Assembly (NCBI GenBank): GCA_029247315.1
Contig: JAQWLM010000002.1
Span: 201,785 to 265,784, forward strand
Length of the DNA: 64,000 nucleotides
Direction: 5' to 3'
DNA from: Verrucomicrobiota bacterium
GTDB taxonomy: Bacteria > Verrucomicrobiota > Verrucomicrobiia > Limisphaerales > AAA164-E04
Position numbers and translations under genes: made by a program
Notes under the pieces: model-generated
Seen by the model: the letters and a program-made list of their open reading frames with translations, nothing else
The model's database searches: none
What the model was told of the DNA's origin: nothing
Shown: positions 30,039 through 46,308 of the stretch, in pieces
Numbering within the stretch: the first letter of the stretch is position 1
Layout of the letters: every line of letters starts with the position of its first letter

Positions 30039-30088
30039 GAACGCAGGAGCTCAAAAAGATAACAAACGTCTTTGCAGCCCGACGTCAG

Positions 30089-31645
30089 CTAAAGATCAAT
30101 CTGGCTGGTCGCCCCATCAATTTCGGAGGGAGGCCCCTCCACTTCTCCAGCAGGTGCAGCCTCAAGGGCAGTCGCGGCCTTGATTTCCGCCAAGGCCTTC
30201 TTGGGATCGTAATCTTCAGGGAGACTGAGCCGTGTACGAAGCTGATCAGCGAGTAGGGGGTTCAAGCCCTGTTCAGGATCCAGCATCCGAGCCAACAACT
30301 CGATTTTCATTTCCTGAACGGTCGGCAGCTTGATGCGTACGATCTGACTTTGGCTGATCTGGTCGTAATACCGCGAGCGCATCTTGCGCACCAGCATTTC
30401 CCCGGCGATAGCTTTGTCTTCCTGCCCCATCGCGATGTCCATCAGGGCTCGTTCCATGAAGCCCATCAGCATCGCCTTCAGGCGATCCTGTGAGGTACTT
30501 CCAAATTCTTCCTCCACCCTGGCAAAGACATACTCCTCAAGGGTGGTGTCGATGGAATCAGGATATTTTTCCCGAACGTAGTCATACCATTTTTCCGCAG
30601 CCTGCATCCGGTTGTGTGTATAAAGGAAATAGACCGCCGTCCTGAGGAAATTCTTGTGGGCCGTCCTCATGTTGTCAGCGAACTTTTCCTCCTCCTCGAT
30701 CATTTCCTCGTAGGCACTGTTTGTTTTCTCGGCAATATCCAGGTTGGGGCCAAATTCAAAGGCGGTGGTATAAGTGCCGGGATCACCAGGGATTGCCACT
30801 GGAAACTCGATCATTCTGCCGCGATGGAAAGCCGTTTGCATACTCTGGAAAATAACCCGTCTCAGCGTCACGTAGTCTTTGGCACGCTCGGATACCTTCA
30901 AACCAAGATAGGCCCAATAGATGGCATGGGCCTCGGGAAGACGCCATTCGAGGGGGCCATGCTCAGCATCCACCTGCTGCATGACGGCAGGATCCATCTT
31001 GTAGATTTCTCGCAGATTACGCACCCGGTCCTTGTCCTCGGGCGATTCCGGTTGCAGCAGCACTTCGTAGTCAGGTTTGCCATCTGTCAGGAGCTCATTC
31101 CACTCTGCCGCCCAGCGGGACTTGTACAGCATGTTGGCATCGTCCAGATTGGCGCCCATCTTGTGCTGGAAGAACCAGGCAAGCTCTCGATAAATGAGGG
31201 TTTCCTGAGGGTTGTACTTGAGTCCATGGTCACGCAGCAGCTCGATTCCACGCTTAACCCAGAGCCAGCGATCATCATGATCCGGGAACTTAACGGAGAT
31301 ATTGTAGGCGAGGTTCCAGGCCTGGTGCACCCAGACGGTCACAAAATGAGGCTGCAACTTGGTGATCCAGTCCGCGAGCTGGACCATTTCAAAATACTTG
31401 CCTTCGTCCTGTAACTGAGTGGCCCGCACCCACAGCATGTTGGATATCAAACCACGAAACCCACCCAGGGCTACCGTGGTAAAGGCCAGCACCGGTGGGG
31501 CGTTCTCCAGAGGTTGCAAGCGTGTCAGCCCCATGGCTGCACGTGACTGGTTCAGACCCTTCTGCACCATGCCGGCACCGACGAGCATCAACACCACGAA
31601 GATGCTCAGGAAGTATTTGGAATATCGGGCGATCAGACCATTCAT
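30089..31645 (-). CDS. uncharacterised membrane-anchored protein (518 aa)
   Basis: Two N-terminal hydrophobic segments (FLSIFVVLMLVGAGMV, PPVLAFTTVALGGFRGLISNMLW), then a large helical-looking soluble domain. I recognise no family. The start overlaps the upstream permease stop by 4 nt. Confidence 0.5.
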   Translation of the reverse strand: MNGLIARYSKYFLSIFVVLMLVGAGMVQKGLNQSRAAMGLTRLQPLENAPPVLAFTTVALGGFRGLISNMLWVRATQLQDEGKYFEMVQLADWITKLQPHFVTVWVHQAWNLAYNISVKFPDHDDRWLWVKRGIELLRDHGLKYNPQETLIYRELAWFFQHKMGANLDDANMLYKSRWAAEWNELLTDGKPDYEVLLQPESPEDKDRVRNLREIYKMDPAVMQQVDAEHGPLEWRLPEAHAIYWAYLGLKVSERAKDYVTLRRVIFQSMQTAFHRGRMIEFPVAIPGDPGTYTTAFEFGPNLDIAEKTNSAYEEMIEEEEKFADNMRTAHKNFLRTAVYFLYTHNRMQAAEKWYDYVREKYPDSIDTTLEEYVFARVEEEFGSTSQDRLKAMLMGFMERALMDIAMGQEDKAIAGEMLVRKMRSRYYDQISQSQIVRIKLPTVQEMKIELLARMLDPEQGLNPLLADQLRTRLSLPEDYDPKKALAEIKAATALEAAPAGEVEGPPSEIDGATSQIDL

Positions 31646-33021
31646 TGGTTTCCTTGTGCTGTTGCCAGTTCACTCCGTGTGAAGGCCCAGATACCGAAAG
31701 CTGAAAAAATACCCCCCATCAATAAAACGATTTGGGTCAAGGCTTGCCCAAGGATTCCAAGTGTGATGCTGCGGCCGGTACTCAGAAAGCTTATGGGCGA
31801 AAAATCCTTCACTGTGTTGATCGTCTTCAGCATGCCCTTGGCCAAATAGATGGCCAGGGTGTCGAAGGCCGAGGAGCTGTCCTTTCGACCTGTTTCGTGA
31901 TTGATACCACTCACTCCCCCCTGTTCGATCACCTGCGCCAGGGTTCCACCGGAAAACCCGACAATCAGCAACGCGATGGAGACAAAGGCTGCTACCGGAA
32001 AAGAGAGGAAACTGGAGGCAGCCAGTCCGATGGCAGCCAGGAAGCCCATCCAGCAAAGAATCACAAGCATGCCGCGCACGTAGTTCCAGCCGAAACCTCC
32101 ATGCCGGTAGAGTACCTCCATGCCGTCCTCAGGCGGAAAGAGCAAGACCTCCTGGTTGTCGTTGTAGATATCGATCACAAGATTACCCTCGGGATCGAGC
32201 AGGTTCGGCGGAATCTCGAATTCAACGGGAGACTCCGGTGAAATATCCATTTGACGCTGCACCCGTTGCGGGGTTTCAGGAGGCCCAATCTCCCACACCA
32301 CATCATATGTCGAAGTATCATAAGGTTGGCTGGTGAAAAACTTGATCCGGAGGTACATGGGCTGGTCCTTGACATTCTGAGGGTCGGCAACCGGTATCGA
32401 CCAGCGTCGAAGATACCCTGGTCGAACCACCTGCTGGGCTGCCTTGACCTGTTCTTCCACCTGTTGGCGGAAAAACTCTGGATCCAACTTTGCAAGCTCC
32501 GGATTCTCTTCCAGACGCTGCGCCATGTATTCCTGCACGAGGGGATCCGTATCGCGGATAGGCGGCTTGGCAGAAACCCGCGCCACAAAAATTTCATTCT
32601 TAAGAACGCGTTTCTGTGCATCCGATAACTGATTTGCCCGCATGAGGGTAATAGCGTAAACAGCTGACGTGGATACCGCGAGAAGGGCGGCGTTGAGGAT
32701 AACAATGCCACACCATTTTCCCAGCCAGATTTTCCAACGCGGAATGGGTTTCACCACCAGCATTTGAATCTGACAGTCCTGCACTTCGCGGGCAAGACTC
32801 CCACAGGAAATCCACAAGGTTGAAAAACCAAGAAGAAAGGTGATCGTGCCCAGCGTATAGGTAAGCAGGATCTGCGTGAAACCCTGTGCCGACCCGTCAT
32901 GCTTGATCATCCATGGCAGGACCACCACCGAGGCCATGAGGAGTCCGGTGAGTACCATCACCACCCGGTAGCGGACGGCGGCTGTCAAGGTCAAACCAAT
33001 GATGGCAAAAAGTCCCTGCAT
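31642..33021 (-). CDS. ABC-2 type (NosY-like) permease with large extracytoplasmic loop
   Basis: 459 aa. Multiple TM segments at both ends, a ~170-aa soluble insert, and an ABC-2-like block QMLVVKPIPRWKIWLGKW. 30 nt downstream of an ABC ATPase gene. Confidence 0.6.
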   Translation of the reverse strand: MQGLFAIIGLTLTAAVRYRVVMVLTGLLMASVVVLPWMIKHDGSAQGFTQILLTYTLGTITFLLGFSTLWISCGSLAREVQDCQIQMLVVKPIPRWKIWLGKWCGIVILNAALLAVSTSAVYAITLMRANQLSDAQKRVLKNEIFVARVSAKPPIRDTDPLVQEYMAQRLEENPELAKLDPEFFRQQVEEQVKAAQQVVRPGYLRRWSIPVADPQNVKDQPMYLRIKFFTSQPYDTSTYDVVWEIGPPETPQRVQRQMDISPESPVEFEIPPNLLDPEGNLVIDIYNDNQEVLLFPPEDGMEVLYRHGGFGWNYVRGMLVILCWMGFLAAIGLAASSFLSFPVAAFVSIALLIVGFSGGTLAQVIEQGGVSGINHETGRKDSSSAFDTLAIYLAKGMLKTINTVKDFSPISFLSTGRSITLGILGQALTQIVLLMGGIFSAFGIWAFTRSELATAQGNQ

Positions 33022-33051
33022 GTGCGCTTTTAAAAAGTTTCAGTGGCGGAG

Positions 33052-34269
33052 TTAGGAGCCTTTGGAGTCTCCACCATCAAGGAGAGAGGAGAGTTTATCG
33101 TCGGCGGCATCCAGATCTGCCTGGGAAGAAGGCGCTGGTTTCGATTTGAGAGACGACTCCTCCGATCCCCCTGACTGTGACAAATGATCAAGCTTGGAGT
33201 AATCCACCTTGTCCTTTGTAACAGCTGAGGAAGTTGAACGCGGTGCTTGTCCCTCCGCGGCCGTAAGTCGATCCAGCATCTTGTCCTGATTGCTTGACGG
33301 GTCCTCGGAACCTCCCTTGAGGTAGTCCGCCACCCTCCCCGCAAGGGCGCCGGATGTACTGGCTTCAGCAGCGCGCGCCTTCTCGACCACCCCCAGGAAA
33401 TAACTTTCCAGATTCTGGGTTGGATTATCGACGGAAACAGCGTCCTGGGCGACCTCGGAACGGATAATGTCCAGCACTCGCTTCATGGTATCACGCCTGA
33501 GCAGTGGGGAAGTGATGCGGGTCACGTCCGGAGTGGTCAACAGCTCCTTCAAGGTACCCTGGGCCTGAATCTTTCCGCCGTAATAGATCACCACCCGGTC
33601 GCATACGTCCTCCACATCTGAAAGCAAGTGACTACTGAGGATGATGGTCTTTCCTCGCTTGGCCAGGGCAACGATCAAGTCCTTGATTTCGCGGCAGCCG
33701 ATAGGGTCCAGACCCGCGGTGGGTTCATCGAGGATCACCAGGTCCGGATCATTGATCAGGGCCTGAGCCAGGCCGATACGACGCTGCATACCCTTGGAAA
33801 ACTCACCTACCTGGCGCGAACGGGCATTGTTGAGCCCTACCATCTCAATCAGTTGCTCGGCACGTTTACGACGCTCTGGCTTATTCAGATTGAATAGATT
33901 TCCAAAGAAATCGAGAGTCTCCTTTGAATCCAGGTAACGGTAGAGATAGGATTCTTCGGGGAGGTAACCGATGCGTGATTTGGTGGCCACGTGACGAGGT
34001 GAATGACCGAATACCTCGATATGACCGCGAGTGGGGTAAAGGAGTCCCAGCAGCATTTTAATGGTGGTGGATTTTCCGGAACCATTCGGTCCCAGAAGGC
34101 CAAAAACCTCCCCACGTTTCACCTCAAAGTCGACGTTGTTGACCGCCCGTGCCTTGGGCCTCCTCCAGAAATCCTTGAAGACCTTGGTCAGACCTCGCAC
34201 GGAGATCACCGCCTCGCCGTGGGTCTGGTTGAACCGGTCGGAGGATAAATCTGTTTGATTGTTTACCAT
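33052..34269 (-). CDS. ABC transporter ATP-binding protein with ~107-aa low-complexity C-terminal tail
   Basis: Walker A GLLGPNGSGKSTT, signature FSKGMQRRIGLAQAL, Walker B LVILDEPTAGLD. Ser/Asp/Lys-rich tail from about residue 299. Confidence 0.9.
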   Translation of the reverse strand: MVNNQTDLSSDRFNQTHGEAVISVRGLTKVFKDFWRRPKARAVNNVDFEVKRGEVFGLLGPNGSGKSTTIKMLLGLLYPTRGHIEVFGHSPRHVATKSRIGYLPEESYLYRYLDSKETLDFFGNLFNLNKPERRKRAEQLIEMVGLNNARSRQVGEFSKGMQRRIGLAQALINDPDLVILDEPTAGLDPIGCREIKDLIVALAKRGKTIILSSHLLSDVEDVCDRVVIYYGGKIQAQGTLKELLTTPDVTRITSPLLRRDTMKRVLDIIRSEVAQDAVSVDNPTQNLESYFLGVVEKARAAEASTSGALAGRVADYLKGGSEDPSSNQDKMLDRLTAAEGQAPRSTSSAVTKDKVDYSKLDHLSQSGGSEESSLKSKPAPSSQADLDAADDKLSSLLDGGDSKGS

Positions 34270-34318
34270 AAGGTTTTTCCTTTATGCGTGCCCTCTGCTC
34301 ATTCCAAGTGCAAGCGTT

Positions 34319-36334
34319 TCAGACTGGCTGGATGGCTTCCTTTGGGGGCGCAGTCTGGGTGCCCTCATCGGATGCCTGCTCCGACTGTTGAAGGAAAGGC
34401 TCCAGTTCCTCACCGGAGCGAACCAGCCGGAAACTGTTGAATACCACCAGCAGGGATCCCACAACATGCATTACAGCAGCAAGGATGGGGTTGATATAAG
34501 CCATGGAAGCCAGAACAAACCCACCGATCACGAAAACCACTCCGAAGAGAAAGTTCTGATTGATCACTGAGCGAGTCTGTCGGGAAAGTTTGACGAGAAA
34601 TGGCAAACGCCTCAAGTCATTGTTCATCAGTGCGATCGTAGCACTGTGGATGGCGACTTCACTGCCAGCTGCGCCCATGGCAATGCCCAGGTCACCTGCA
34701 GCAAGAGCCGGAGCGTCATTGACACCATCCCCCACTACTGCAACACGATAGCCCTTGGCTTTCAGCTTGTGCACAAACTCAACCTTGTTTTGAGGCAGAC
34801 ACTCCGCCACGACCTCCTCACAACCGATTTCGCGAGCCACCCTGACGGCTACCGGCTCCCGATCCCCCGAGACCATGGCAATCCGACGGATATCGGCATC
34901 CTGCAAAGCTGCCAGGGATTCCTGTGCCTCAGCACGGGTTTGGTCCTGAAGCCCAATCCACCCAACAAATACCCCGTCGCGAGCCACATACAGGAGGCTG
35001 TAACCTTCCGCTTCACTCAGGTCGACACTGGACATGAAGTCGTCCTTCAAACCATTTTCCTGAAGCCAGTTAGCCCGACCTACGGTCAAGGTTTCCGCAC
35101 CAAGCCGAGCCGTGATTCCTTTACCCGCAGTTTCCTTGAAATCCACCGGCTCGGTCAATTCGAGGCCAGCTTCCTGCGCAAGTTGGGCAAGTGCCTTGGC
35201 GGTGGGGTGATTACTGTATTTCTCGGCAGATGCAGCCATATGCAGCAACTCGGCAGGCTTGATTCCCTCCTGGGGTGCCAATCGACTGACGGCAAGCTTA
35301 CCTGTCGTGAGGGTTCCGGTCTTGTCAAAGACAAAGGCGTTGATCTTGGCGGACAACTCGATATCAGCCACGTTCTTGATCAGGATACCCAGGCGGGCAG
35401 CAGAGGAAAGTGCGGCTACCATTGCAGTGGGGGTAGCCAGGATAAAAGCGCAAGGGCAGGCAATGATGAACACGGTAATCACACGACTAAGGTCCTGAGT
35501 AAAGGCCCAAACAAGGGCACCCACCAAGAGGACAAGCGGGGTGTAGAATCCCATGTACTGGTCAACAATGCGCATGATAGGCAACTTTGTTTTCTCAGCT
35601 GCCAAAATCAGATCGTGAACCCGACCCAGCGTGGTATCCGCATCTGCACGGCTCACCTTGACTTCCAGAAGACCGGTCAAGTTCTGTGTTCCCGCAAAAA
35701 CTTCATCCCCTGCCTTCTTGTCAACAGGAAGAGATTCGCCGGTGATATTGGCCTGGTTGATGGTAGCCTCTCCACTGGCGATCAATCCGTCGGCAGCGAT
35801 ATTATCTCCCGGGCGGATGCGGATGACATCACCCACCTTTAAATCCTTGACCTCGACCTCCTCTTCCTTACCACCGTTGACACGGCGTGCCTTGGTTGGG
35901 GTCAACTTCACCAATGACTCGATCGAGGCGCGTGCACCCTCCGCTGTCCTTGTCTCGATGATCTCACCCAGCAGCATGAAGAAAGCCACCAGTCCCGATT
36001 CCTGGTATTCACCGGAAGCGAAGGAGGCCAGAACCGCGAGGGCCACCAGCTCGTTGGTGCTGAGACGTCCCTTTCGCAGGTCCTTGATCGCCGTCCAGAC
36101 AATGGGATAGCCTAGTATCACGGCACCAATCATGGCGTTGATATCGCCCACCACAGCCCCATTTTCGAAGAAATAGTGAATGATAAAGGAATTGATGACA
36201 AAAAGCAGTCCGACGAGGACCTGACCGAGACGAATCTCGGTATGCTCGTGGTCGTGTCCACATCCATCGCAATGATCATCGTGTTGATGGTGATGCTCAC
36301 CGGATTTCTGGCTCAAGAGTGATGTTACTTGCAT
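34319..36334 (-). CDS. heavy-metal-translocating P1B-type ATPase
   Basis: 671 aa. CPC in TM6 (IIACPCAFILATP), DKTGTLT, GDGVNDAPAL. His/Cys-rich N-terminus EHHHQHDDHCDGCGHDHEH. No ferredoxin-like HMA (GMxCxxC) domain. Confidence 0.9.
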   Translation of the reverse strand: MQVTSLLSQKSGEHHHQHDDHCDGCGHDHEHTEIRLGQVLVGLLFVINSFIIHYFFENGAVVGDINAMIGAVILGYPIVWTAIKDLRKGRLSTNELVALAVLASFASGEYQESGLVAFFMLLGEIIETRTAEGARASIESLVKLTPTKARRVNGGKEEEVEVKDLKVGDVIRIRPGDNIAADGLIASGEATINQANITGESLPVDKKAGDEVFAGTQNLTGLLEVKVSRADADTTLGRVHDLILAAEKTKLPIMRIVDQYMGFYTPLVLLVGALVWAFTQDLSRVITVFIIACPCAFILATPTAMVAALSSAARLGILIKNVADIELSAKINAFVFDKTGTLTTGKLAVSRLAPQEGIKPAELLHMAASAEKYSNHPTAKALAQLAQEAGLELTEPVDFKETAGKGITARLGAETLTVGRANWLQENGLKDDFMSSVDLSEAEGYSLLYVARDGVFVGWIGLQDQTRAEAQESLAALQDADIRRIAMVSGDREPVAVRVAREIGCEEVVAECLPQNKVEFVHKLKAKGYRVAVVGDGVNDAPALAAGDLGIAMGAAGSEVAIHSATIALMNNDLRRLPFLVKLSRQTRSVINQNFLFGVVFVIGGFVLASMAYINPILAAVMHVVGSLLVVFNSFRLVRSGEELEPFLQQSEQASDEGTQTAPPKEAIQPV

Positions 36335-36397
36335 GATTCCTTATATGTTAAAATAATGGGTTTCTCGCGGGCGATCTACCATCGATCGTCCAAGTCC

Positions 36398-37537
36398 CTA
36401 CTGGTCTTCTTCCCCTTGTTTGCCGCCCGTGAGAGAGGGTTCACGATTGAGCTGAAGGCGTAATTCCTGCGTCGTACCTGGCTCAATCGCCGGTAGCAAC
36501 CAAGTATCATCAGCATTGGCAAGGACACGCCCCATCCCCTCAATAATCAAACGTTTTCGAAAGAATGCTGGGTTTGCCTCGAAGTGGGGTTGTAACTGGG
36601 TAAAAACCTTGGCATCCGCAATGACCCGACTGGTTATCAGATTGCTGCGAGCGATACCATCGTTGATGATGGCTTGGGCCTGTCCCTGGGCACGCCGCAA
36701 CTGCTCAAGAGCGTCACCCTCGGCCTCGTTACGCACCTGGCTGACTGTTTGCTCGGTCTGGGTTACCTGTTCGAAGGCTTCCTTGACAAAAACAGGGGGA
36801 TAGGTGCGCACGTCCAGCGACTGGAGCGTGATTCCCAGGTTGGCCTTTTCAACCGTCTCCAGAAAACGTTCACGCACCTTTTCCTTGTGCTCCAGGCGAT
36901 TACGGTAGAGGACATCATCCGCATTGAATTGCGCAGAGGCAAAGATCACCGCGTTGTTCAGTGCATTTTCAAGTAATTCTTCTACCCGTAAAAAATTAAA
37001 CTCAAAAGCTACCGGGTCGCTGATACGATACTGGGCGTTGGCCCTTGCATGGACGATGTTGCCGTCAGAAGTCAGGGCATATCCATCCACACCGGGACGC
37101 AGCGACGGCATCGAGTAGGGCAATTCCCCGGTTATTTCCATCTCGGGAGTCACGGCATACCAGCAGTTGGTGGCAACGATGGTGCGCGTCTCCCCACTCG
37201 GAATCCGAATGATTTCACCAATAGGGCTGGGCCACGACCAGTGAAGGCCCTGGTCAAGCACCTGGTCGGCACCACTTCCCACCGGCTTGCCAAATCGCAG
37301 GACCACCGCTACTTCGTTGGGTTCAACGGTGAAGACACCGGACCCTATGAAGAGTATAAAAAGCCCTAACATCAAGACCTTGATGATTTTAAAGCTACTG
37401 GACAAGGCATCGGCAAGGGCTCGTGTGCCAGAGTCCTCCATGGGATGCGAGACGGGCACTTCTTCAGCGGCCTTGTCAGCATGAAGATCAATTTTTTCCG
37501 GTAAATCCGGTAATTCAGGTTTGTTGGAATCACTCAT
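36398..37537 (-). CDS. SPFH/band-7 protein, HflK-like architecture
   Basis: 379 aa. Acidic N-tail, one TM (VLMLGLFILFIGSGVF), an SPFH core (EVAVVLRFGKP...GLHWSWPSPIGE) and a coiled-coil C-terminal region. Confidence 0.75.
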   Translation of the reverse strand: MSDSNKPELPDLPEKIDLHADKAAEEVPVSHPMEDSGTRALADALSSSFKIIKVLMLGLFILFIGSGVFTVEPNEVAVVLRFGKPVGSGADQVLDQGLHWSWPSPIGEIIRIPSGETRTIVATNCWYAVTPEMEITGELPYSMPSLRPGVDGYALTSDGNIVHARANAQYRISDPVAFEFNFLRVEELLENALNNAVIFASAQFNADDVLYRNRLEHKEKVRERFLETVEKANLGITLQSLDVRTYPPVFVKEAFEQVTQTEQTVSQVRNEAEGDALEQLRRAQGQAQAIINDGIARSNLITSRVIADAKVFTQLQPHFEANPAFFRKRLIIEGMGRVLANADDTWLLPAIEPGTTQELRLQLNREPSLTGGKQGEEDQ

Positions 37538-37613
37538 GACACTTGCAACTTAGCAGTTTTGAAAACAGATATTTACCACCTTAAACGTTGGCTCAACCAT
37601 CATCCACAAGCGA

Positions 37614-38519
37614 CTACCGCCCCGTATCCTGCATGGCATCGGCACCCTCTTTCAGGAGGTTGAAGGGGGGCGTGGAGGGATCCGCCACAATGGTGGTTTT
37701 CTCCTTGGTGGCCGCTTCCAAGGCCTCCAGACCTAAGAGCAGCTCAGCAAGTTCCGGGTTTTGCTGGAACACCTTGTAGTATTCGTTGGCCTTGGCCTCC
37801 GCGTCGCCCTCGATTTCGATGGCCTTGGCCCGTGCCTCGTTCAGGATTTTCTTACTCTCGGCGTCTGCCTTGGAACGAATTTCCATGGCGCGACTCTCAC
37901 CTTCACCCTGAAACTGCTTCACCAAGCGCTGGCGATCAGCCCGCATCCGTTCGAAGACCTTCTGGGTGTTACTCTCGGGGAGTCCAAGCTGCTTGATATG
38001 AGCAAATGCCACCTCGATACCGTAATTGTCCTTGGCTGCATTCTGAATGGCCGCAAGGATTTCTGTCTCGATTTCATCAAACTTCAAATCCTCCTCCCGA
38101 GGCGAAATCAAGTCACGAAAGGGGTGCTGCCCGATCACGCTGTTCTTGGCATCCCGCACCAGACTTTCAAGGCTTTGCTGCGCCTTGATCGCGTCGCCAT
38201 TGAAGCGCTCCAGATAGATAGCGGGATCACTGATCTTCCAACCAACGAAAACCTCGATGATCAGCGGCTTGGCATCACCAGTGGTGGTCTGCTCAAACTT
38301 ACGCTCAAAATTCTGCAATCGACTGTCGAATTTGTGTACTTTCTGGATGGGCCAAGGCCACTTGAACTCAAGTCCGGGCTCATCGATCGTCTCGGAGTAT
38401 TTCCCAAAAGTGGTGACCACGGCTACCTCCGCGTTTCGCACTTGGAAACAGAACAGGATCGAAGCAAATATCAACAGCAGGATGCCGCCGGTGACGAGGG
38501 ATATCAGGTTTTTGTTCAT
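37614..38519 (-). CDS. SPFH/band-7 protein, HflC/prohibitin-like
   Basis: 301 aa. N-terminal TM (GGILLLIFASILFCF), VAVVTTFGKY...PGLEFKWPWPIQKV, GIEVAFAHIKQLGLPE, coiled coil QGEGESRAMEIRSKADAESKKILNEARAKA. Confidence 0.8.
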   Translation of the reverse strand: MNKNLISLVTGGILLLIFASILFCFQVRNAEVAVVTTFGKYSETIDEPGLEFKWPWPIQKVHKFDSRLQNFERKFEQTTTGDAKPLIIEVFVGWKISDPAIYLERFNGDAIKAQQSLESLVRDAKNSVIGQHPFRDLISPREEDLKFDEIETEILAAIQNAAKDNYGIEVAFAHIKQLGLPESNTQKVFERMRADRQRLVKQFQGEGESRAMEIRSKADAESKKILNEARAKAIEIEGDAEAKANEYYKVFQQNPELAELLLGLEALEAATKEKTTIVADPSTPPFNLLKEGADAMQDTGR

Positions 38520-38567
38520 AAACTGGATACGAAATAAAGGGTCTTTGTCGTTTGAATCAAATGGGGG

Positions 38568-40505
38568 TTAACGTTCTTCAGGGCGCGCTCCAAGCAGATC
38601 ATAAGCAATCTTGTCTTCAAGATTGAGCAGGAAGGTCTCGTTGCCCTTGGGAACAATGACATATTTGCGTACATTGGTCAGCGAATTCGCCATGGCATCA
38701 AAATACTTGCGCTGTTTGAAAACATCCGGGGCGGACTGATACGCCTTGATCAGATCCTGAAACTGATTCGCTTTGGCCTCGCTGGTCAGGACGCGCTCGT
38801 AGCGAAAACCTTCCGCCATGGAAACCAACCTGGCCGCCTCACCGCGTCTCTTGGGAACGATTTCCGCCGCGTAACCCTCGGCCTGCAGAATTTTGGCCTG
38901 CATTTCCTGCTCAGCACCAATGACCTCCTCAAAGGCCCCCGCCACTGGAGTCATCTTGTCACCCACGGGAGGATGAATATCTTGGAGCCCTACAAAAAGG
39001 ATTTCGACACCCAACTCAAGGGAATCGGCGAGGCTCTGCATCCGCATTTTGAGTTCCTGAGCGGCCTGCAGTCGGCCGGTAGACATAATGTCGATCAAGT
39101 CCACGCTCACAAGATATCGAACCACTTCACGATGTCCAATGGATTGCAGCAACTCAGCAGGTTCAGAGTGGTTGTAGTACCACTGCTCGAAGTCCTTGAC
39201 AACGTATTGCACAGGAACGGCGGCAGTGAGGAAATTGACGGGCACGGTCTGTTCCTGGCCATCCGTCATCGGAGAAGATGCCTGTTCGCGGCTCGCCACC
39301 AGGAAGTTTGTTTCCTCAGCGTAATGCTTGGATGTCCATAGAAGCGTTCGCTCGAATACCCCCTGCATATCCGTTTCGTAGCCCACGTTAAAACTTCTCA
39401 ACTCCCTGGCGGGATGCCGAAAGACCTGGTCGATGGGCCATGGCCACTTGAAGTGCAGGCCCGGCTTGAGCACGGCATCTCCGGATCGCTGGAAAGGCAG
39501 AAGAGGCCATCGGAGTTCTCGAGAAGGGCTGCCAAAACGTTCAAGGATGCCCAGTTCATTGGGCTCGATAATGACGAAAGTGGTGGAAAGCATTAGGATT
39601 CCAAGCTGGAAAAGAACCAACCATGCCAGCGCCTTCTCAAGAAACTTGTAGAACCATGTATCTGAAACCTTGAAGCCAAACTGGTAGTCCAGAGCCTGCG
39701 CGGCTGTGGTTACCAGTCCGGCGGGCTGCCCGAGAAGGCCTACCAGGCGACTCTCGTAGAGAGCCCGTTCGGCCTTGCCCTTCGTGCGGGGGCGGTAGAT
39801 ATCGAGGATCAGATTGATAAACGTCTCCACCGCGGAAAGCCCAAGGAGGACCACCATGATGCGTGCCATGTGAAAATCAAGGCGCGGAACATCAAACCAG
39901 CCAGCTGCAAATGCCATCACCACCACCACACAGATAACGGAACCCAGCAGCAGATAGGCACCGCCGGGACGCAGCAGGCGTAGCTTATCGAGTCGCGCAA
40001 CACCAGAGCTGTATTTGCCCAACATGAACAGCAGCAGGGCAAAGGCCGAAAACGACACCATGACGATGGGGGCCTTGGACAGATCGGGCTGTAAAACGCC
40101 TGGAAGCCAGTTCCAAAGAAGATAAGCACCCACAGCTTGCCCAATGCCCAGTAGGGCGGTGAATATGGGTACGAAAAACCTTTCGAACTGTTCACGAGCC
40201 TTGCGGGCAAGAAACGTGTCATCCCCGGATTCATCAAAGAGAGCCGCACGATTACGATCCTTGGCAATGTCCTCAAACTCCATTGTCTCCAGTTGCTCGC
40301 GATTTTCCAATCGCATCTGGAAATAGCTGATCGCAGCCACCAGGAAACCGATGCCGAGGAAAACGGCACCCACCGCCGCCGTGGCGGAAAGCGCAATCTT
40401 CGCGATGACGGACGCCACCGCGCAGGCAACCAGGAGACCCAACATGTTGACCAATCCGTTTTTCTGTGTATTTCGTTCCATACTTCGCTTCAATCCACCA
40501 CGCAC
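38568..40505 (-). CDS. polytopic membrane domain fused to C-terminal SPFH/band-7 domain
   Basis: 645 aa. About 300 aa with at least 6 hydrophobic segments, then IIEPNELGILERFG...LKPGLHFKWPWPIDQV, VEILFVGLQDIHPP and a coiled coil. Confidence 0.7.
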   Translation of the reverse strand: MRGGLKRSMERNTQKNGLVNMLGLLVACAVASVIAKIALSATAAVGAVFLGIGFLVAAISYFQMRLENREQLETMEFEDIAKDRNRAALFDESGDDTFLARKAREQFERFFVPIFTALLGIGQAVGAYLLWNWLPGVLQPDLSKAPIVMVSFSAFALLLFMLGKYSSGVARLDKLRLLRPGGAYLLLGSVICVVVVMAFAAGWFDVPRLDFHMARIMVVLLGLSAVETFINLILDIYRPRTKGKAERALYESRLVGLLGQPAGLVTTAAQALDYQFGFKVSDTWFYKFLEKALAWLVLFQLGILMLSTTFVIIEPNELGILERFGSPSRELRWPLLPFQRSGDAVLKPGLHFKWPWPIDQVFRHPARELRSFNVGYETDMQGVFERTLLWTSKHYAEETNFLVASREQASSPMTDGQEQTVPVNFLTAAVPVQYVVKDFEQWYYNHSEPAELLQSIGHREVVRYLVSVDLIDIMSTGRLQAAQELKMRMQSLADSLELGVEILFVGLQDIHPPVGDKMTPVAGAFEEVIGAEQEMQAKILQAEGYAAEIVPKRRGEAARLVSMAEGFRYERVLTSEAKANQFQDLIKAYQSAPDVFKQRKYFDAMANSLTNVRKYVIVPKGNETFLLNLEDKIAYDLLGARPEER

Positions 40506-40516
40506 CGGGTGGCTTT

Positions 40517-41659
40517 TTAATTCAATTCACGACTCTCAAAACTCATCACTGCCAGCGCCATCAAGGCACTGAGGTAAAAAAGCACATAGGCAAAAGAGCG
40601 CCCAACATAGGACCAGGGAACGGTCTTGTCGTTCTCCAGAGCGTCCGCGATCCAGAAAAGTTGCCAGTTGGGTATGATGGCGTAGACAATGGAAGCCCAG
40701 ACTTGCCTGTCCAGACCAGCCTCCTTCATGGCGGCAATGTCCTCCGGCAGCAAGGAAGCCATCTCACTCATGTCGATCTTTTTATTGTCATTCGTATCCG
40801 CCTTCGAAATGGTAGAGGAAAGCAATCGCTTCTGCGATTCCGTGAAAGGACCCGACTGGACTGTTTGATGTGAGGGAAAGGACACCCATGCGGGTTCTGC
40901 CCAGCGCCCGAAGAGGTAATCAGACATCAGTCCCAGCAGGAACAGCAGGGTGCAGATGGCAAGTGTAGGCACCACCTCGAGCCGTGTGGAACATACCAGA
41001 GCCAAGCCAGCCAGAAGCAGGAAGGCACATAGAATCAACATGGACGCCGGGATCAAACGCCAGTCCAGATCGATATGATCCTCATACATCGTTCCGTTGC
41101 GCTCTTTGAATGCAATGTAGACAAAGGCAATGGTAACCATCACGGCGACAAAGCACACCGCATCCGAGGTAAAGGTGCGGTTCAGGAAGTAATTGGTAAA
41201 GCCTGCCAGCAGATATGCCAAGGCGATAGCGCCCGTGAAGACAAAGAAGGCCGTCTTGTCGACCTCGCCGTATGCGGTGAAAGATATCTTGCTGGCAACC
41301 AGGGCACTGATCATGTTGACGTAGGTGAGAACGGCTAGAGTAGCTGCCAGACCCACGTACTTCCCCATAAGGAAGCCCACACGGCCCACTGGCTTGGACA
41401 AGACCGCCAGCGCAGTTCCAGTGCGGATCTCATGGGCCACTGAGGTGGAGGCACTGACCACAGCCCCAAACAATCCCACCAGCAGCAAGGTCGCCAAAAC
41501 ACTATCCTTGACAAGTTTGGGATCATCCCCAAAGCCAAAGTAAGGCGTGCTGGCAAGGAAAACAGCAAACACGGCAGAAGAAGTCATCAGCAGGAGAAAG
41601 ACCGGCTGACGCAACAACTCCATGAAGGCGTTCCATGCTATGGTTCTAATCTGTCTCAT
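40517..41659 (-). CDS. ABC-2 type (NosY-like) permease with EF-hand-containing soluble loop
   Basis: 380 aa. ABC-2-like block IRTGTALAVLSKPVGRVGFLMGKY, multiple TMs, and a ~75-aa loop carrying DTNDNKKIDMSE (nt 40763-40798). No adjacent ATPase gene. Confidence 0.6.
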   Translation of the reverse strand: MRQIRTIAWNAFMELLRQPVFLLLMTSSAVFAVFLASTPYFGFGDDPKLVKDSVLATLLLVGLFGAVVSASTSVAHEIRTGTALAVLSKPVGRVGFLMGKYVGLAATLAVLTYVNMISALVASKISFTAYGEVDKTAFFVFTGAIALAYLLAGFTNYFLNRTFTSDAVCFVAVMVTIAFVYIAFKERNGTMYEDHIDLDWRLIPASMLILCAFLLLAGLALVCSTRLEVVPTLAICTLLFLLGLMSDYLFGRWAEPAWVSFPSHQTVQSGPFTESQKRLLSSTISKADTNDNKKIDMSEMASLLPEDIAAMKEAGLDRQVWASIVYAIIPNWQLFWIADALENDKTVPWSYVGRSFAYVLFYLSALMALAVMSFESRELN

Positions 41660-41686
41660 TAAAGATACAAATCACAGGGACCGAGG

Positions 41687-41714
41687 AGAATAATGAACTC
41701 CCGGCCACAGTCAA
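41687..41714 (-). promoter_or_regulatory. candidate sigma70-type promoter for the permease/SPFH cluster
   Basis: Minus strand TTGACT-16 nt-TATTCT, with the -10 ending about 27 nt upstream of ATG 41659. Consensus use in this lineage is unverified. Confidence 0.3.
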
Positions 41715-41815
41715 AGCAGAAATTTTCTTGGCAATTTTATTCAAGACAATCAAAAGGACACGCAACTATTCAAGAAAAGGCAAATTTGCCAATGGGCGTT
41801 TGAAGGCACAGAGCA

Positions 41816-44608
41816 TCACGGAGCCGCATCAGGTGGATGCCTCTGAAGGTCATGGATGACGATGCCTTGAGAGGCATGTCGCGCTGCGGGATCCCTGGAT
41901 CGCGCAAGCGCCACCGCCTGATCCCTCGCATTATCGTCAAAGCGGTACGTCTCGTGCAGTTCACGATGATGGGTGGCCTTGTCCTCATTCCCAAGTTCAG
42001 CATGAATCAGCGAGAGGTTGTAATGCGCAGTCTGGTTTTCTGAGTCCAGTTGAAGGGTATGCTGGAATTGCTGGATCGCAAGGTCGAGAAATTGCCTCTC
42101 TCGCTCGGGCTGCCCGCGCTCCAGCTTGGACCGCAGGTAGTAGGTCTGCCCCAACTCGTTGATGACAACATAGTCCTTGCTGAAGTCAAAACCACGTTCG
42201 TCCAGTTCGGCATAACGATCCTCGAGGATGCTTCGATAATTTTGAATGGCCTCGTCAAGTTCACCATTTTGCGCATGCACCCGACCTGTAAACCATGCAA
42301 TGGTCCAACGGGGAGCAGGTGGATCGAAAGCAGCGGCACGCTGCAGGGCGAGAGCGGCATCATCCACTCTACCCTCCTTGAAGAAGACTCGGGCCATGTT
42401 GACCGGCCCCTCAGGGTAACCCAGTGCCTCAACCTGCGCAAAGGCCTTAGAGGCCTGCTTCAGCTCCCCCTTGTCACTGCCGGCTGAGCCCTTGAGCAAG
42501 AGACCAATGCCGTAATCATTCCAGCGCTGCCAGGTCGGGAATCCAGCTGGAGTAATCTCAGCGGTGAAATCCTGCGGGTCTGGATCGCCGCCTTCGATGC
42601 CAAAGGCCACTGCATCCTCGCAAAGAATGGAAACAGGCAGGTCATTCACATAATCCTTGCCATAAACATACTGCATGTAGGTGGTGTCAAACTTCCGGTA
42701 TTTAAGCTTCACCTGAAGGCGGATGGCCTTTGTCTGCGTATCGGGCACTCTGAACCTGTAATGCACCACCGCAGCCGCACCAGGCGGAATCTGGTTGTTA
42801 TAAAGCGGGGTAAAGATGTCCCCAGCATTTCGCCGGTCAATTCTGTTTCCATCCTTGTCGAGCATGTAAACGTTCACGAAATGCGACCAAGGATCCACAC
42901 GGTTCTGATCTCCAAAACTACCACTTTGGCCCAGGACCTTATCGCCGTCCTCCGCCGTGACCTCCAGCCATACCTGGTTTGAATCCGCAGTCCCTTGTGT
43001 GAAGATGTGACCAAGTTTCAGGGTGCGAATCACGATCTCAAACAGGTAACTCTGGCCGGGCTTGAGGTCAGGAACTTCCGGGCGAAGAGGGGCGATGAGG
43101 GGTGCATCCACCGTGCCTCCTTCCTTGATACCAAAAAGATCCACCCTGAGGTTACCTTCGTGGAATGTTTCATGGGCCTGATTGACCCATTCAGGTGCCT
43201 TGCGGAGATGGGGCAGTGCTGTATTGGCAGATGGAAAGAGATGGTCATGGATCTTGAGTTCTCCGGAATCATCAAAGAACCGGGCCCCAAAATCCTCCGA
43301 AGCCTCCAACTGCATGTGGCAATCGTTGCAGTTGCGTTCTGCCTTGGGAGGATAATAAAAAGCCCTGGCATTGATGCCCGAGACACCACTGAGAAGGAAA
43401 TTGTCGTAGTGATTCTGCCCTCTCAACCATTCCTTGTAATGCGTCAGTTCCCCTGGAAGGCTGACTTTGTGGCACACCGAGCAGTATTCTGAGGTCTTGT
43501 GCAGCGGCTTGAGGAAGGTCTTATTGTGAAAGGCTGGTTTGGCCTTGACCAGGAGCTCATTGACATATTGAAGGGCCGTATTGTCACTGAAGGCAAATGG
43601 ATAATGAATCGGCTCCTCAAGGGTATAGGCCGCGTTTCCCTTGGTACTGTTGACATGGGTCATGGAGTGACACACGGTACACGTAATGCCAGCATGCGCC
43701 GTTGGATGATGACGCATATCAAACTCTGGATCATCAAAGGCGCCACTGAGAAATGGGACGACATCATGGCACCCGGCGCACCATCGGGATGCCTTGACAT
43801 CACCGTCCCGCTTGATAAGCACGTCCCTCAATTCCTTGATGGAAAACAGATATGGTTCATTGTTGAACGAGCTGAAGTGATGTGAGCTGTGGAACCAATC
43901 ATGGTAGGCATCTTCATGACATCGCTGGCAATACTCATCCATCATCAGGGTTTTGGCCGGAACAAACTGACCCGTAGCCGTCCTTGCGAGTGAAGGCTCG
44001 AAATACTGTTCCCCTTCCTTGGGACCTTCAAGGTTCCACCGACGCGGGTCCTGTTTATGCAAGCCAGCCATACCGACGACGACCACCCCAACCGCAAGGG
44101 CCCAACCGGCACCAACCTTCCACTGGAGACGCGGACCCGCCAGGCGATGCAGCACGTACAACCACACCACAAGTATGGGAGTGATGACGTGTGCCCAATA
44201 CAGCCAGAGGCGCGTGTTGGGATTCCTGACCTCAAATCCCTCCACCCGCATGAGGGCAAATCCCGATAAGAGCAGGATCAGGCAAATGACCAGCAGACCA
44301 TAACCCACCTTGACGGCCCGACGATTGCGCCGCTTGTAAGCAAGCCGGAGGTGCGCGAAAGCAAAAAACAAGAATGGGAACACCAGGACAATGCCCAGAA
44401 CCAGGTGCGCCAGGAACATATACTGATAAAAATAGTTTTGATAAAGTTCATCGTACCACCACTCCAACAAGGTGATGGCACTGAGATACGCAGAATTGGC
44501 GCCGAGCACTGCGAACAAGCCCAGCACCGCATAGAGCAGAACCTGAAGCCGAGGCCCCATGGTCGGGCGATAACGGCGATGCCCGTTTGATGAACCCTCC
44601 TGAGTCAT
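41816..44608 (-). CDS. membrane-anchored pentahaem c-type cytochrome fused to TPR repeats
   Basis: Five CxxCH motifs (CQRCH, CAGCH, CTVCH, CSVCH, CNDCH; nt ~43316-43930). N-terminal ~5 TM helices with intramembrane His (FLAHLVLG, YWAHVITP, YVLHRLAG). C-terminal TPR-like repeats. ATG 44608 (MTQEGS) is preferred, and the ORF is open to ATG 44728. Confidence 0.8.
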   Translation of the reverse strand: MTQEGSSNGHRRYRPTMGPRLQVLLYAVLGLFAVLGANSAYLSAITLLEWWYDELYQNYFYQYMFLAHLVLGIVLVFPFLFFAFAHLRLAYKRRNRRAVKVGYGLLVICLILLLSGFALMRVEGFEVRNPNTRLWLYWAHVITPILVVWLYVLHRLAGPRLQWKVGAGWALAVGVVVVGMAGLHKQDPRRWNLEGPKEGEQYFEPSLARTATGQFVPAKTLMMDEYCQRCHEDAYHDWFHSSHHFSSFNNEPYLFSIKELRDVLIKRDGDVKASRWCAGCHDVVPFLSGAFDDPEFDMRHHPTAHAGITCTVCHSMTHVNSTKGNAAYTLEEPIHYPFAFSDNTALQYVNELLVKAKPAFHNKTFLKPLHKTSEYCSVCHKVSLPGELTHYKEWLRGQNHYDNFLLSGVSGINARAFYYPPKAERNCNDCHMQLEASEDFGARFFDDSGELKIHDHLFPSANTALPHLRKAPEWVNQAHETFHEGNLRVDLFGIKEGGTVDAPLIAPLRPEVPDLKPGQSYLFEIVIRTLKLGHIFTQGTADSNQVWLEVTAEDGDKVLGQSGSFGDQNRVDPWSHFVNVYMLDKDGNRIDRRNAGDIFTPLYNNQIPPGAAAVVHYRFRVPDTQTKAIRLQVKLKYRKFDTTYMQYVYGKDYVNDLPVSILCEDAVAFGIEGGDPDPQDFTAEITPAGFPTWQRWNDYGIGLLLKGSAGSDKGELKQASKAFAQVEALGYPEGPVNMARVFFKEGRVDDAALALQRAAAFDPPAPRWTIAWFTGRVHAQNGELDEAIQNYRSILEDRYAELDERGFDFSKDYVVINELGQTYYLRSKLERGQPERERQFLDLAIQQFQHTLQLDSENQTAHYNLSLIHAELGNEDKATHHRELHETYRFDDNARDQAVALARSRDPAARHASQGIVIHDLQRHPPDAAP

Positions 44609-44928
44609 GCCTCCATCAAATCCACAAGTCCTACGCTTTGCAACGTGAAAAAAAAGGGAATTGGATGACAACAACTTGCGCCATCCTCGGAGCAGCACTT
44701 TATCCTGCTTAATCGCTTTTCCCGACAAATCCCCTCAACGAATCCTATCGCCTTAAAGGGAACAAGGAAGGCTTAGAAACGGATGTATTTTTTCCATGCA
44801 ACCACGTTCCGGCGAGATGCAGATTAGGCTCGCGAGGTATGTGATACCGTGCAAGCATGCAGTCTTGGTCCATGGCTCGGACGGCCAGCATAGTGTTTCG
44901 TGCCGGGCTAAGGAACAAACCATAAGCC

Positions 44929-46308
44929 ATGCGACGAATCATTCACTGCCTGTTGATCGGGGCTTGCATCGTTTTGGAAGCCCGTGAAGACAAGGAACCG
45001 GTCATTGAAGCGGGCCTTGCCCAGCTGGACATCACTCCGGAGGAACCCATTTTTCTGGCCGGCTATGCAGCACGCCGAAAACCGAGCGAGGGTGTGGATA
45101 TCCCCCTCAAGGCCCAAGCACTGGCATTGCGGTCCGGTAACCAGCGTTTCGTCTTCGTGGCTCTGGACAACTGCGAAGTCAGCAGACGTTTCATGGAACC
45201 AGTCCTCAAGAAACTGGCTGCAACACACGGCTTACCAAGAGGCTCGGTAATGGTCGTCAGCAGCCATACGCATAGTGCCCCGGTCTTGGCCGACACACTT
45301 GAGGTCATGGCCATCATGCCTGCCAAGGACAAGGAAGTGATACGCCGCTACAGCAAACGCTTGCAGTCACAATTGGCAGAAGTGGTCTCGCTTGCATTGA
45401 AAGACCTGAGTCCTGCCCAGCTCAAGCATGGGGTGGGTGAAGCTACGTTCGCCATGAACAGGCGTATCTACCGCCCGGAGGGCATCCGTTTTGGTGAGAA
45501 CCCTGATGGCCCTGTCGACTGGGATGTCCCTGTCCTGAGCATTTTAAGCACACAAGGTGAACTCAGGGGGATTCTTTTCGGATATGCATGCCACGGCACC
45601 AGCGTTTCGGGGAATGGATTCTTTCAGGTCAGTGGAGATTATATGGCCTATGCACGCGCATCCCTTGAAAACGTGTATCCCGGGGCCATGGCCATCTTTA
45701 TGACCGGCATGGGAGCCGATCAAAACCCATCGCCCAGGGGAGATATCATGGACGCCAAACGACATGGGGTCGAACTGGCCGGGGCTGTCATTGAAGTGCT
45801 CAACAAGCCCATGCGAAGCGTGGAGGGCAGACTCGCACATACCTACAAGGAAATGGATCTGCACTTGGAAGCTGCCCCAGACCGACCCCAGCTTGAGAAA
45901 GACGCAAAAAGCGACGACATCTATGTCCGACGTCGTGCAGAACAATTCCTGGCCATCCTGAACCAGGGTGGGGCAATGCCGCTCTCCATCCCCCTGCCCA
46001 TGTCCATCGTACGTATAGGAACGGACCTGACCTTCATGAACCTTGCTGGTGAGGTCGTGGTCGATTATGCCATCCGACTCAAGCGACAATACGCTGACGA
46101 TCACCCCTGGTGCATTGGCTATGCCTACGAGGTACCGTGCTACATCCCCAACGTGCGAATCCTCAAGGAAGGTGGTTACGAAGCGGAATCTTCCCTCATT
46201 TATTACGGCCTTTATGGACCCTTCCGAACCAGTATCGAGTCCAACATCCTGACACAGGTGAAAGGCCTCATGCAGACCCTTGAAACACCCTCGGATGCAT
46301 TGCCCTGA
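44929..46308 (+). CDS. secreted hydrolase resembling the neutral/alkaline non-lysosomal ceramidase N-terminal domain
   Basis: 459 aa. Signal-like MRRIIHCLLIGACIVLEA. AGLAQLDITPEEPIFLAGYAARRKPSEG, VVSSHTHSAP. Family assignment is from memory only. Confidence 0.5.
   Translation: MRRIIHCLLIGACIVLEAREDKEPVIEAGLAQLDITPEEPIFLAGYAARRKPSEGVDIPLKAQALALRSGNQRFVFVALDNCEVSRRFMEPVLKKLAATHGLPRGSVMVVSSHTHSAPVLADTLEVMAIMPAKDKEVIRRYSKRLQSQLAEVVSLALKDLSPAQLKHGVGEATFAMNRRIYRPEGIRFGENPDGPVDWDVPVLSILSTQGELRGILFGYACHGTSVSGNGFFQVSGDYMAYARASLENVYPGAMAIFMTGMGADQNPSPRGDIMDAKRHGVELAGAVIEVLNKPMRSVEGRLAHTYKEMDLHLEAAPDRPQLEKDAKSDDIYVRRRAEQFLAILNQGGAMPLSIPLPMSIVRIGTDLTFMNLAGEVVVDYAIRLKRQYADDHPWCIGYAYEVPCYIPNVRILKEGGYEAESSLIYYGLYGPFRTSIESNILTQVKGLMQTLETPSDALP

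Follow-up and report, generated by a model that had tools for sequence, protein, structure and literature searches.

Why should three genes of the SPFH superfamily lie side by side on a bacterial chromosome, flanked by transporter genes, with one of the three extended by a polytopic membrane domain? We investigated this question for a stretch of 64,000 nucleotides (nt), hereafter the window, from a Verrucomicrobiota bacterium of the order Limisphaerales (GenBank assembly GCA_029247315.1, contig JAQWLM010000002.1, positions 201,785 to 265,784). SPFH proteins (stomatin, prohibitin, flotillin, as well as HflK/C) are found in every domain of life. A preliminary description of the locus, made from the DNA alone, had proposed that the SPFH triad builds a hetero-oligomeric assembly that serves the flanking transporters. 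Here, we report that the arrangement is conserved in two phyla, and we modestly favor the interpretation that the SPFH genes are the core of a membrane module of the Planctomycetes–Verrucomicrobia–Chlamydiae (PVC) superphylum, present in Verrucomicrobiota and Phycisphaerae, in which a heteromeric HflK/C-type cage would be coupled to its own pumps.

The three consecutive SPFH open reading frames (ORFs) are all on the minus strand, are separated by gaps of 48 and 76 nt, and run along that strand in the order K-like, C-like, K-like. The long SPFH gene (38568–40505) encodes 645 amino acids (aa) from a GTG start and 637 aa from an ATG (38568–40481). The GTG start (40481–40505) adds 8 residues found in no homologue, and since all homologues begin MERNTQKNG, translation probably starts at the ATG at 40481; residues of the long protein are therefore numbered below in the 637-aa form. 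The second gene (37614–38519) encodes an HflC-like protein of 301 aa with, as judged by hydropathy, a single N-terminal membrane helix, and the third (36398–37537) encodes a second HflK-like protein of 379 aa, composed of a cytoplasmic head of ~50 aa, one membrane helix, and an SPFH domain. The ORFs and gaps are exactly those given in the preliminary description, and all three proteins exceeded the gathering cut-off of Pfam Band_7 (PF01145; 23.6 bits), the long protein at 57.2 bits, the HflC-like protein at 98.0 bits, and the second HflK-like protein at 76.9 bits. Band_7 was also matched by 68 of 69 long-form homologues.

At the family level, the long protein scored 143.6 bits against TIGR01933 (hflK; cut-off 159.4) over model positions 20–255 of 261, the 301-aa protein scored 130.2 bits against TIGR01932 (hflC; cut-off 134.4) and reached model position 310 of 318, and the 379-aa protein scored 137.4 bits against TIGR01933 (cut-off 159.4). 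None of the three thus reached the NCBIfam equivalog cut-offs for hflK or hflC, and all were close below. The best relatives of known structure, found by sequence, were HflK for the long protein (7vhp_E; E = 4.7e-20), HflC for the 301-aa protein (7vhp_G; 93 bits), and HflK for the 379-aa protein (83 bits), so that family models and solved structures agree with the earlier assignment of the second protein as HflC-like and the third as HflK-like. The HflK/HflC architecture was also present, namely an N-terminal membrane anchor, an SPFH domain predicted to lie in the periplasm, a long coiled coil, and a cap segment at the C-terminus. On sequence grounds, the three proteins belong to the HflK/HflC subfamily of the SPFH superfamily, short of equivalog level. 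Pairwise identity among them was 21–25% (24.5% when the second HflK-like protein is compared with the long protein's SPFH half), and by this measure they are old paralogues.

The K-like-then-C-like order is kept in the triad, with the additional K-like gene following. HflK and HflC genes occur as a pair, as a rule downstream of hflX; in Escherichia coli, hflK and hflC lie within an hfq–hflX–hflK–hflC operon and ftsH is located elsewhere. We scanned all 39 ORFs of the window that were at least 200 aa long and not inside a longer ORF on the opposite strand, and none encoded FtsH (AAA/Peptidase_M41), NfeD, or HflX. The preliminary description had reported the same absences and had pointed to the missing protease partner; we give this no weight, because hflKC and ftsH are not normally neighbors and the absence of ftsH from 64 kb is therefore uninformative and does not speak against modulation of FtsH by the triad.

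The triad sits in a run of eight same-strand genes, in the order ATP-binding cassette (ABC)-2 permease A, long SPFH protein, HflC-like protein, HflK-like protein, P1B-type ATPase, ABC ATPase, ABC-2 permease B, and a tetratricopeptide repeat (TPR)-like protein. One operon is plausible because the gaps are only 11–76 nt, with one 4-nt overlap. The transporter neighbors mentioned in the preliminary description are hence two ABC-2 permeases, a P1B-type ATPase, and an ABC ATPase, which flank the triad on both sides.

We investigated the distribution of this arrangement in a collection holding one genome per GTDB species. When the long protein's N-terminal domain was used as the query, at least 576 species genomes matched, and the best 80 of these were almost all labelled Verrucomicrobiota, Limisphaerales, or Pedosphaera. 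The window proteins were compared by tblastn with these best 80 loci and with 5 loci from a protein look-up, and presence was counted only at loci long enough to hold the gene in question. The order of the cluster was kept in about 80 species-level Verrucomicrobiota genomes, and loci at 73% and about 50% identity carried the eight genes in the same order. Conditional on the long SPFH gene, because the loci were chosen for carrying it, permease A was present directly upstream of that gene in 81 of 82 Verrucomicrobiota loci, the HflC-like gene after it in 79 of 79, the second HflK-like gene in 73 of 73, the P-type ATPase gene in 69 of 69 (median identity: 71%), the ABC ATPase gene in 58 of 64, permease B in 53 of 60, and the gene of the 518-aa TPR-like protein in 52 of 60. 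Median identities were 43–52% for the SPFH genes and 71–74% for the two ATPases.

In two Limisphaerales metagenome-assembled genomes (MAGs), unrelated lysine-rich hypothetical genes (575, 327, and 166 aa, and others) interrupt the triad both before and after the C-like gene, leaving all three SPFH genes intact (loci L016, at 11918–17000, and L017). Additionally, one Verrucomicrobiota-type locus (L004, 3745–4359) and one Phycisphaerae locus (L086, 5882–6493) carry a gene for Fe/Mn superoxide dismutase a few kb upstream of the cluster, a position that may be a coincidence.

The cluster was found again in a second phylum. The N-terminal profile was searched against a database of 1.84 billion representative proteins clustered at 50% identity, which gave 1076 clusters at E ≤ 1e-3, 581 of them reaching E ≤ 1e-30. 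One distant representative came from a Planctomycetes MAG, and its relatives are Phycisphaerae proteins of ~700–730 aa. In 6 of 7 Phycisphaerae loci, we found permease A, the long SPFH gene, the C-like and K-like genes, the ABC ATPase gene, permease B, and an orthologue of the TPR-like protein of ~660 aa; permease A is divergently transcribed there, yet still adjacent. Each SPFH protein of the window best matched its positional counterpart in Phycisphaerae, at 23–37% identity (35–37% for the HflC-like orthologue), and the ABC ATPase was ~57% identical. Because a separate orthologue exists in both phyla for each of the SPFH paralogues, the triplication either predates the split of the lineages or moved as a unit; because protein identities are low, a single recently transferred element is unlikely. 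A lack of synteny in related genomes had been named beforehand, in the preliminary description, as one observation that would refute the idea; synteny was found, in about 80 Verrucomicrobiota genomes as well as 6 of 7 loci from Phycisphaerae. The set of partners proposed there has to be redrawn: the ABC-2 system and the TPR-like protein are invariant in both phyla, and the P-type ATPase belongs to Verrucomicrobiota only. As read from gene content, the invariant core is seven genes, and the P1B-type ATPase is a fixed Verrucomicrobiota addition placed between the SPFH and ABC genes.

What distinguishes the long protein from the other two is an extra N-terminal stretch of ~300 residues. Its polytopic domain (residues 1–305; 39567–40481, minus strand) comprises six helices, a cytoplasmic loop, and a seventh anchor helix, and is followed by an HflK-like SPFH domain, a long coiled coil, and strands at the C-terminus (38568–39566, minus strand). 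Hydropathy placed the six helices and the anchor helix within residues 1–313 of the 645-aa form, in line with the earlier reading of the first ~300 aa as polytopic and of the C-terminal half, with its ILERFG...LKPGLHFKWPWPID stretch, as SPFH. An AlphaFold2 model built with 69 homologues had a mean pLDDT (predicted local distance difference test score) of 82.5 and showed helices at residues 2–30, 33–76, 91–128, 134–162, 168–195, 200–229, and 276–301, with a moderately confident cytoplasmic segment between helices 6 and 7. Beyond these, the model showed an SPFH fold, a 70-residue helix (514–583), and short terminal strands, as in HflK. Since Lys and Arg concentrate in alternate loops between the predicted helices, the topology is likely N-in/C-out, which would place the SPFH domain of the long protein in the periplasm, like those of its two single-anchor paralogues and of E. 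coli HflK/C. A 12-residue insertion, ELRWPLLPFQRS, opens the SPFH domain of the window's long protein (approximately 39480–39520, residues ~320–333) and does not occur in the other printed aligned homologues.

The polytopic domain apparently never occurs apart from an SPFH protein. Whole-profile matches among the best 150 of the 1076 clusters were mostly 590–830 aa, shorter entries looked like fragments, and a stand-alone form was not evident within those 150. Among the best 120 of several thousand homologues of the long protein, nearly all were 610–640 aa and covered 97–99% of it, and the named ones came mostly from Verrucomicrobiota MAGs, often under the name "protease modulator HflK". The preliminary description had left open that the 645-aa protein might belong to a characterized family; the literature and family searches found no characterized member.

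With regard to its fold, the polytopic domain most resembles the membrane domain of cation diffusion facilitator (CDF) transporters and is, somewhat more likely than not, CDF-like. When the model of the long protein was compared with the PDB by Foldseek, the top match was HflK (7vhq_E; 1.9e-14), followed by stomatin, prohibitin, erlin, and QmcA; the only matches other than SPFH and vault proteins were the CDF transporters YiiP (8f6h_B), ZnT1 (8xma), and SLC30A10 (9kvx), with E values of 4e-3 to 6e-2 over 229–241 columns, that to YiiP having E = 4e-3, 229 columns, and a root-mean-square deviation of 5.0 Å. Pfam Cation_efflux (PF01545) was the sole recurrent non-SPFH family: 13 of 69 family members matched it at E ≤ 0.01, and two Phycisphaerae orthologues exceeded the gathering score (P0284, 30.3 bits; P0290, 28.8 bits), with matches collinear with helices 1–2 and 4–6. 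The preliminary description, right about the polytopic nature of this domain, had missed its likeness to a degenerate CDF domain.

Within the six-helix bundle, polar residues are conserved inside the membrane, and some of them differ between the phyla. On helix 6, E219 is invariant, N223 and D/E227 lie one helical face apart, and an invariant YRPR follows. Helices 2 and 5 of Verrucomicrobiota carry F41 (F/Y41), G45, G180, and C184; C184 is common to both phyla, N180 occurs in Phycisphaerae only, and helix 2 has H41 in 14 of 30 Phycisphaerae. Helix 3 has Q115 in Verrucomicrobiota and a His at position 115 or 119 in 28 of 30 Phycisphaerae. Over the whole long protein, conservation is highest in the cytoplasmic segment 239–283 (SR, G255, YQFGF, TW), part of the loop pattern YRPR...SR...G...YQFGF..TW, and no counterpart of this segment was found among known proteins. 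We also observed that the Phycisphaerae clusters, which are without the P-type ATPase, hold more His, Asn, and Cys in the six-helix bundle than the Verrucomicrobiota clusters with it; a functioning ion site in the bundle may have been traded off against a recruited P-type pump.

The partner genes of the triad encode two further transport systems and a solenoid protein. The P1B-type ATPase (34319–36334, minus strand; 671 aa) scored 551 bits against TIGR01525 (cut-off 346), has a His/Cys-rich N-terminus, CPC in the transport helix, and DKTGT, with the latter two motifs conserved in 71 orthologues, and matched CopA, sCoaT, and ZntA in the PDB at 293–331 bits; by median identity it ranks with the most conserved proteins of the cluster. 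The ABC ATPase (33052–34269, minus strand; 405 aa; ABC_tran, 115.9 bits) is of the ABC-2 class (type V, ABCA/NosF-like); its nearest solved nucleotide-binding domains (NBDs) are those of ABCA7, ABCA4, and ABCA1 (~220 bits), followed by NosF (161 bits). All specific ABC family scores were below their cut-offs, including that of galliderm_ABC (186 bits). Permease A (40517–41659, minus strand; 380 aa, ~8 membrane helices) is the first cluster gene and scored 27.2 bits against Pfam ABC2_membrane_2, equal to the cut-off of 27.2. Permease B (31642–33021, minus strand; 459 aa; ABC2_membrane_2, 34.3 bits) has a large loop between two helix bundles, and its sole transporter relative among solved structures was NosY, at a weak E value of 0.14. 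One ABC ATPase with two ABC-2 family permeases makes up an ABC-2 (type V) exporter.

The last gene of the cluster (30089–31645, minus strand), whose start is overlapped by the stop of permease B by 4 nt, encodes the 518-aa TPR-like protein, a membrane-anchored, all-helical solenoid. Searches of Pfam, NCBIfam, and PDB sequences gave no family match for it. It has 4536 homologues; the 120 listed contain no Pfam domain, and those among them that are named are all "hypothetical". The AlphaFold2 model (pLDDT 86.3; predicted template modelling score 0.80) was all helical with one N-terminal membrane helix, and Foldseek returned only generic TPR solenoids (Tom71, OGT; E about 1e-3), with no enzyme fold or functional clue. 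In addition, PADLOC defense-system models gave no match for 6 of 7 cluster proteins and generic ATPase similarity only for the ABC ATPase.

In the permease A of the window's clade, we noted an insertion of ~60 aa (380 aa, compared with ~320 aa elsewhere) with an EF-hand-like loop. The loop, DTNDNKKIDMSE (40730–40828, minus strand, residues ~278–310), matches the EF-hand calcium-binding pattern and gave weak matches to S100 structures in the PDB; Pfam EF-hand was not reported for permease A in the scan at E ≤ 10.

How, then, might the triad and the transporters work together? A functional link between them is well supported by comparative genomics, because synteny of the SPFH triad with its transporter neighbors is kept across genomes. 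The cage of E. coli HflK/C consists of 12+12 subunits. By analogy, the C-like subunit may alternate with the two K-like subunits in a periplasmic ring and dome like those of HflK/C. Such a dome would enclose a membrane patch in which the long subunit's tethered six-helix bundles sit with the cluster's own pumps, much as HflK/C encloses FtsH and stomatin encloses AQP1 and UT-B, and the enclosure could confine or regulate export through these pumps. The cargo might be a transition-metal cation, which is the most speculative step. Pointers to a metal are the P1B-type ATPase, the likeness of the fold to CDF transporters, the conserved ladder of Glu-Asn-Asp/Glu along helix 6, and the resemblance of the ABC parts to NosF/NosY, together with the His, Cys, and Asn residues in the Phycisphaerae helices and their complementarity with the absence of the P-type ATPase. 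A fully specified version of this scheme, a dedicated "pump cage", can be put forward only tentatively: a three-subunit dome, with the tethered bundle inside its ring, would enclose the operon's ABC-2 exporter (and, in Verrucomicrobiota, the P1B-type ATPase) in a closed periplasmic chamber, where the exported cargo, for which a transition metal is the most plausible candidate, would pass to the TPR-like partner rather than diffuse off.

Several observations weigh against a cage coupled to metal pumps, some at the level of the cluster and others at the level of the polytopic domain. The ABC half was missing beside the P-type ATPase in 6–8 of ~60 Verrucomicrobiota loci, so that adjacency is not absolute; at seven loci long enough to judge (L026, L027, L030, L031, L064, L070, and L079), the cluster stops after the P-type ATPase, without the genes of the ABC ATPase, permease B, and the TPR-like protein. 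One of the seven Phycisphaerae clusters (L089; Phycisphaerales, CP070744.1), the only broken one among them, is broken after the second SPFH gene, with the third reduced to a 93-aa fragment (13149–13427) and unrelated genes in place of the ABC genes. The P-type ATPase was absent from all 7 Phycisphaerae loci, and a metal role therefore cannot rest on this ATPase alone. Nor could we assign it to copper or zinc: the last helix carries a conserved, atypical H..GS, and the signatures YN/MxxSS for Cu and K/DxG for Zn are both absent. The similarity to NosF and NosY is generic for ABC-2 systems, and ABCA proteins score higher. As for the polytopic domain, the CDF site A (DxxxD/HxxxD on helix 2 and HxxxD on helix 5) is not present, and the long protein has no CDF cytoplasmic C-terminal domain. 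Pfam Cation_efflux was not found in the window's long protein even at E ≤ 10, and the N-terminal-domain profile searched against PDB sequences found no CDF and gave a chance-level match to Vph2 only. An hhalign comparison of this profile with E. coli YiiP (YiiP sequence verified as identical to 2qfi_A) aligned helices 4–6 collinearly with E = 0.009 and a probability of 4.5%, which is weak support for CDF likeness and not proof.

The best surviving alternative is that the triad is simply this lineage's HflK/HflC, an FtsH modulator cage with an extra K-like paralogue, and that the transporters are co-regulated with it or are clients of FtsH quality control. HflK and HflC are the nearest curated families and structures for all three proteins, with scores narrowly below the equivalog cut-offs, the canonical hflK-then-hflC order is repeated by the long and C-like genes, and ftsH, being normally unlinked to hflKC, would be expected to be absent from the window. 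The same scores nevertheless leave all three proteins below the cut-offs, and there is no hflX context. Moreover, a modulator of FtsH would leave unexplained why the ABC-2 system and the TPR-like protein are attached to the triad across two phyla, and why one subunit obligately carries a six-helix transporter-like domain. We regard this explanation as rather unlikely.

Still less probable is a conventional metal-resistance operon (CDF, P1B ATPase, and ABC exporter) with no cage, in which the long protein would actively transport cations as a CDF and its SPFH half would only regulate or oligomerize it. The CDF-like fold, the Cation_efflux matches, the conserved E219, N223, and D/E227, the Phycisphaerae residues (the His of helix 3 in 28 of 30, N180, C184, and H41 in 14 of 30), and a P1B ATPase with a His/Cys-rich N-terminus in every Verrucomicrobiota cluster are what such a transporter could account for. 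The missing site A, C-terminal domain, and window Cation_efflux match described above argue against activity of this kind, two more SPFH paralogues and a TPR-like protein would be superfluous in a simple efflux operon and yet are conserved, and the region, with GlnS, UvrA, PriA, and BipA and even GC content, looks housekeeping and not like a resistance island. Finally, that SPFH and transporter genes are adjacent by chance and without functional meaning is very improbable: SPFH paralogues are common and often several per genome (nine are reported in Pseudomonas aeruginosa, and prokaryotic SPFH proteins form twelve subfamilies, PMC2636767), but order and content are conserved in ~80 species-level genomes, at 36–50% protein identity for the SPFH genes, and again in a second phylum at 23–37% identity.

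A cage coupled to its own pumps would resemble several known systems and differ from each of them. E. coli HflK/HflC–FtsH (PDB 7vhp, 7wi3, 9cz2) is of the same SPFH subfamily, provides the best family and structure matches of the triad, and shares the one anchor helix that precedes the periplasmic SPFH domain, the long coiled coil, the C-terminal strands, and the K gene followed by the C gene. In contrast, the triad has three paralogues instead of two, all below the equivalog cut-offs, one of its K-like subunits bears a six-helix domain, and its genes lie in a transporter cluster and not beside hflX. A parallel to the proposed mechanism is stomatin, which encapsulates AQP1 and UT-B (PMC12407830): there, an SPFH dome holds specific channels or transporters in its membrane footprint, as the triad is proposed to do. 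Stomatin is, however, a homo-oligomer on the cytoplasmic face whose gene is unlinked to its clients, whereas the cluster combines an operonic link, a would-be heteromeric periplasmic assembly, and a covalently fused "client-like" domain.

The transporter parts can be compared in the same way. CDF transporters (YiiP/FieF, ZnT1, SLC30A10; PF01545) have a six-helix bundle with the N-terminus and the segment after helix 6 in the cytoplasm, as is predicted for the long protein, but the latter has a conserved loop of ~55 residues, a seventh helix, and an SPFH protein in place of the C-terminal domain, is without the DxxxD/HxxxD site on helices 2 and 5, and is only marginally similar in sequence. The ABC-2 exporter shares its type V class with NosDFY(L) (PDB 7o0y), which assembles the copper center of nitrous-oxide reductase, and NosF is the best bacterial solved relative of its ATPase; unlike that system, the cluster has no NosD, NosL, or NosZ, and ABCA-type NBDs outscore NosF. 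LanFEG-type systems have one ATPase gene and two different permease genes, a layout that the cluster shares, but the cluster has no lantibiotic genes. SPFH–NfeD operons encode an SPFH scaffold with a dedicated membrane partner (PMC2636767), and examples are QmcA–YbbJ (PDB 8z5g, which was among the Foldseek matches) and the stomatin pair PH1511–PH1510. The cluster is alike in this respect and differs in having transporters and a TPR-like protein as partners, with no NfeD in the cluster or among the scanned ORFs of the window.

Compared with known cages, what is new at the level of gene content and predicted domains is the three paralogues, the covalent transporter-like domain, and the hard-wired linkage to an ABC-2 system and a TPR-like protein (and to a P1B ATPase in one phylum). 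A 2009 survey of prokaryotic SPFH subfamilies and operons contains no such arrangement (PMC2636767), and we found no description of the cluster or the fusion in searchable full texts, a coverage that leaves out most subscription journals. Two families that so far carry no annotation emerge from the cluster, namely the CDF-like domain at the N-terminus of the long protein and the TPR-like protein of ~500 aa. Each is a major and conserved feature of Phycisphaerae and of Verrucomicrobiota lineages of the subdivision-3 type. These groups are abundant in soils, freshwaters, and sediments and have received little genetic study. The public name "protease modulator HflK" for the long protein needs correction, as the family threshold is not reached. 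Furthermore, the candidate clients (the ABC-2 exporter, the P1B ATPase, and the tethered bundle) are encoded beside the cage subunits, which offers a natural, genetically defined case, and a large, deeply conserved, unannotated system of this kind would make the handling of clients by SPFH proteins directly testable. If a dedicated cage for pumps proves true, it would be the first genetically hard-wired SPFH–transporter machine and would give a direct handle on how SPFH cages affect their membrane clients.

The surroundings of the cluster are ordinary chromosome, with GlnS, UvrA, PriA, BipA, HrpB, a sulfatase, and DUF1559 proteins in the window and an even GC (guanine plus cytosine) content along it; together with conservation at low protein identity, this led us to reject a mobile resistance island. 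Scans of the window for tRNA and Rfam families found nothing. A promoter and terminator scan of 29500–45200 gave counts equal to the shuffled expectation and is therefore uninformative on operon structure; two weak promoter-like sites were seen within the 156-nt gap upstream of permease A. Across this gap lies a peripheral neighbor (41816–44728, minus strand), a 970-aa membrane multihaem cytochrome fused to TPR repeats and matching Cytochrome_C554 and TPR families, with approximately five N-terminal helices, MtrC-like/Cytochrome_C554 haem motifs, and C-terminal TPR repeats. A homologue of it was present at the locus only in the closest relatives (L001, L002, and L012), and it falls outside the conserved core. 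Far from the cluster, a 211-aa protein with bona fide EF-hand domains (5818–6453, plus strand; EF-hand_7, 48 bits) adjoins a protein with CotH-kinase and lamin-tail domains at 6450–8948.

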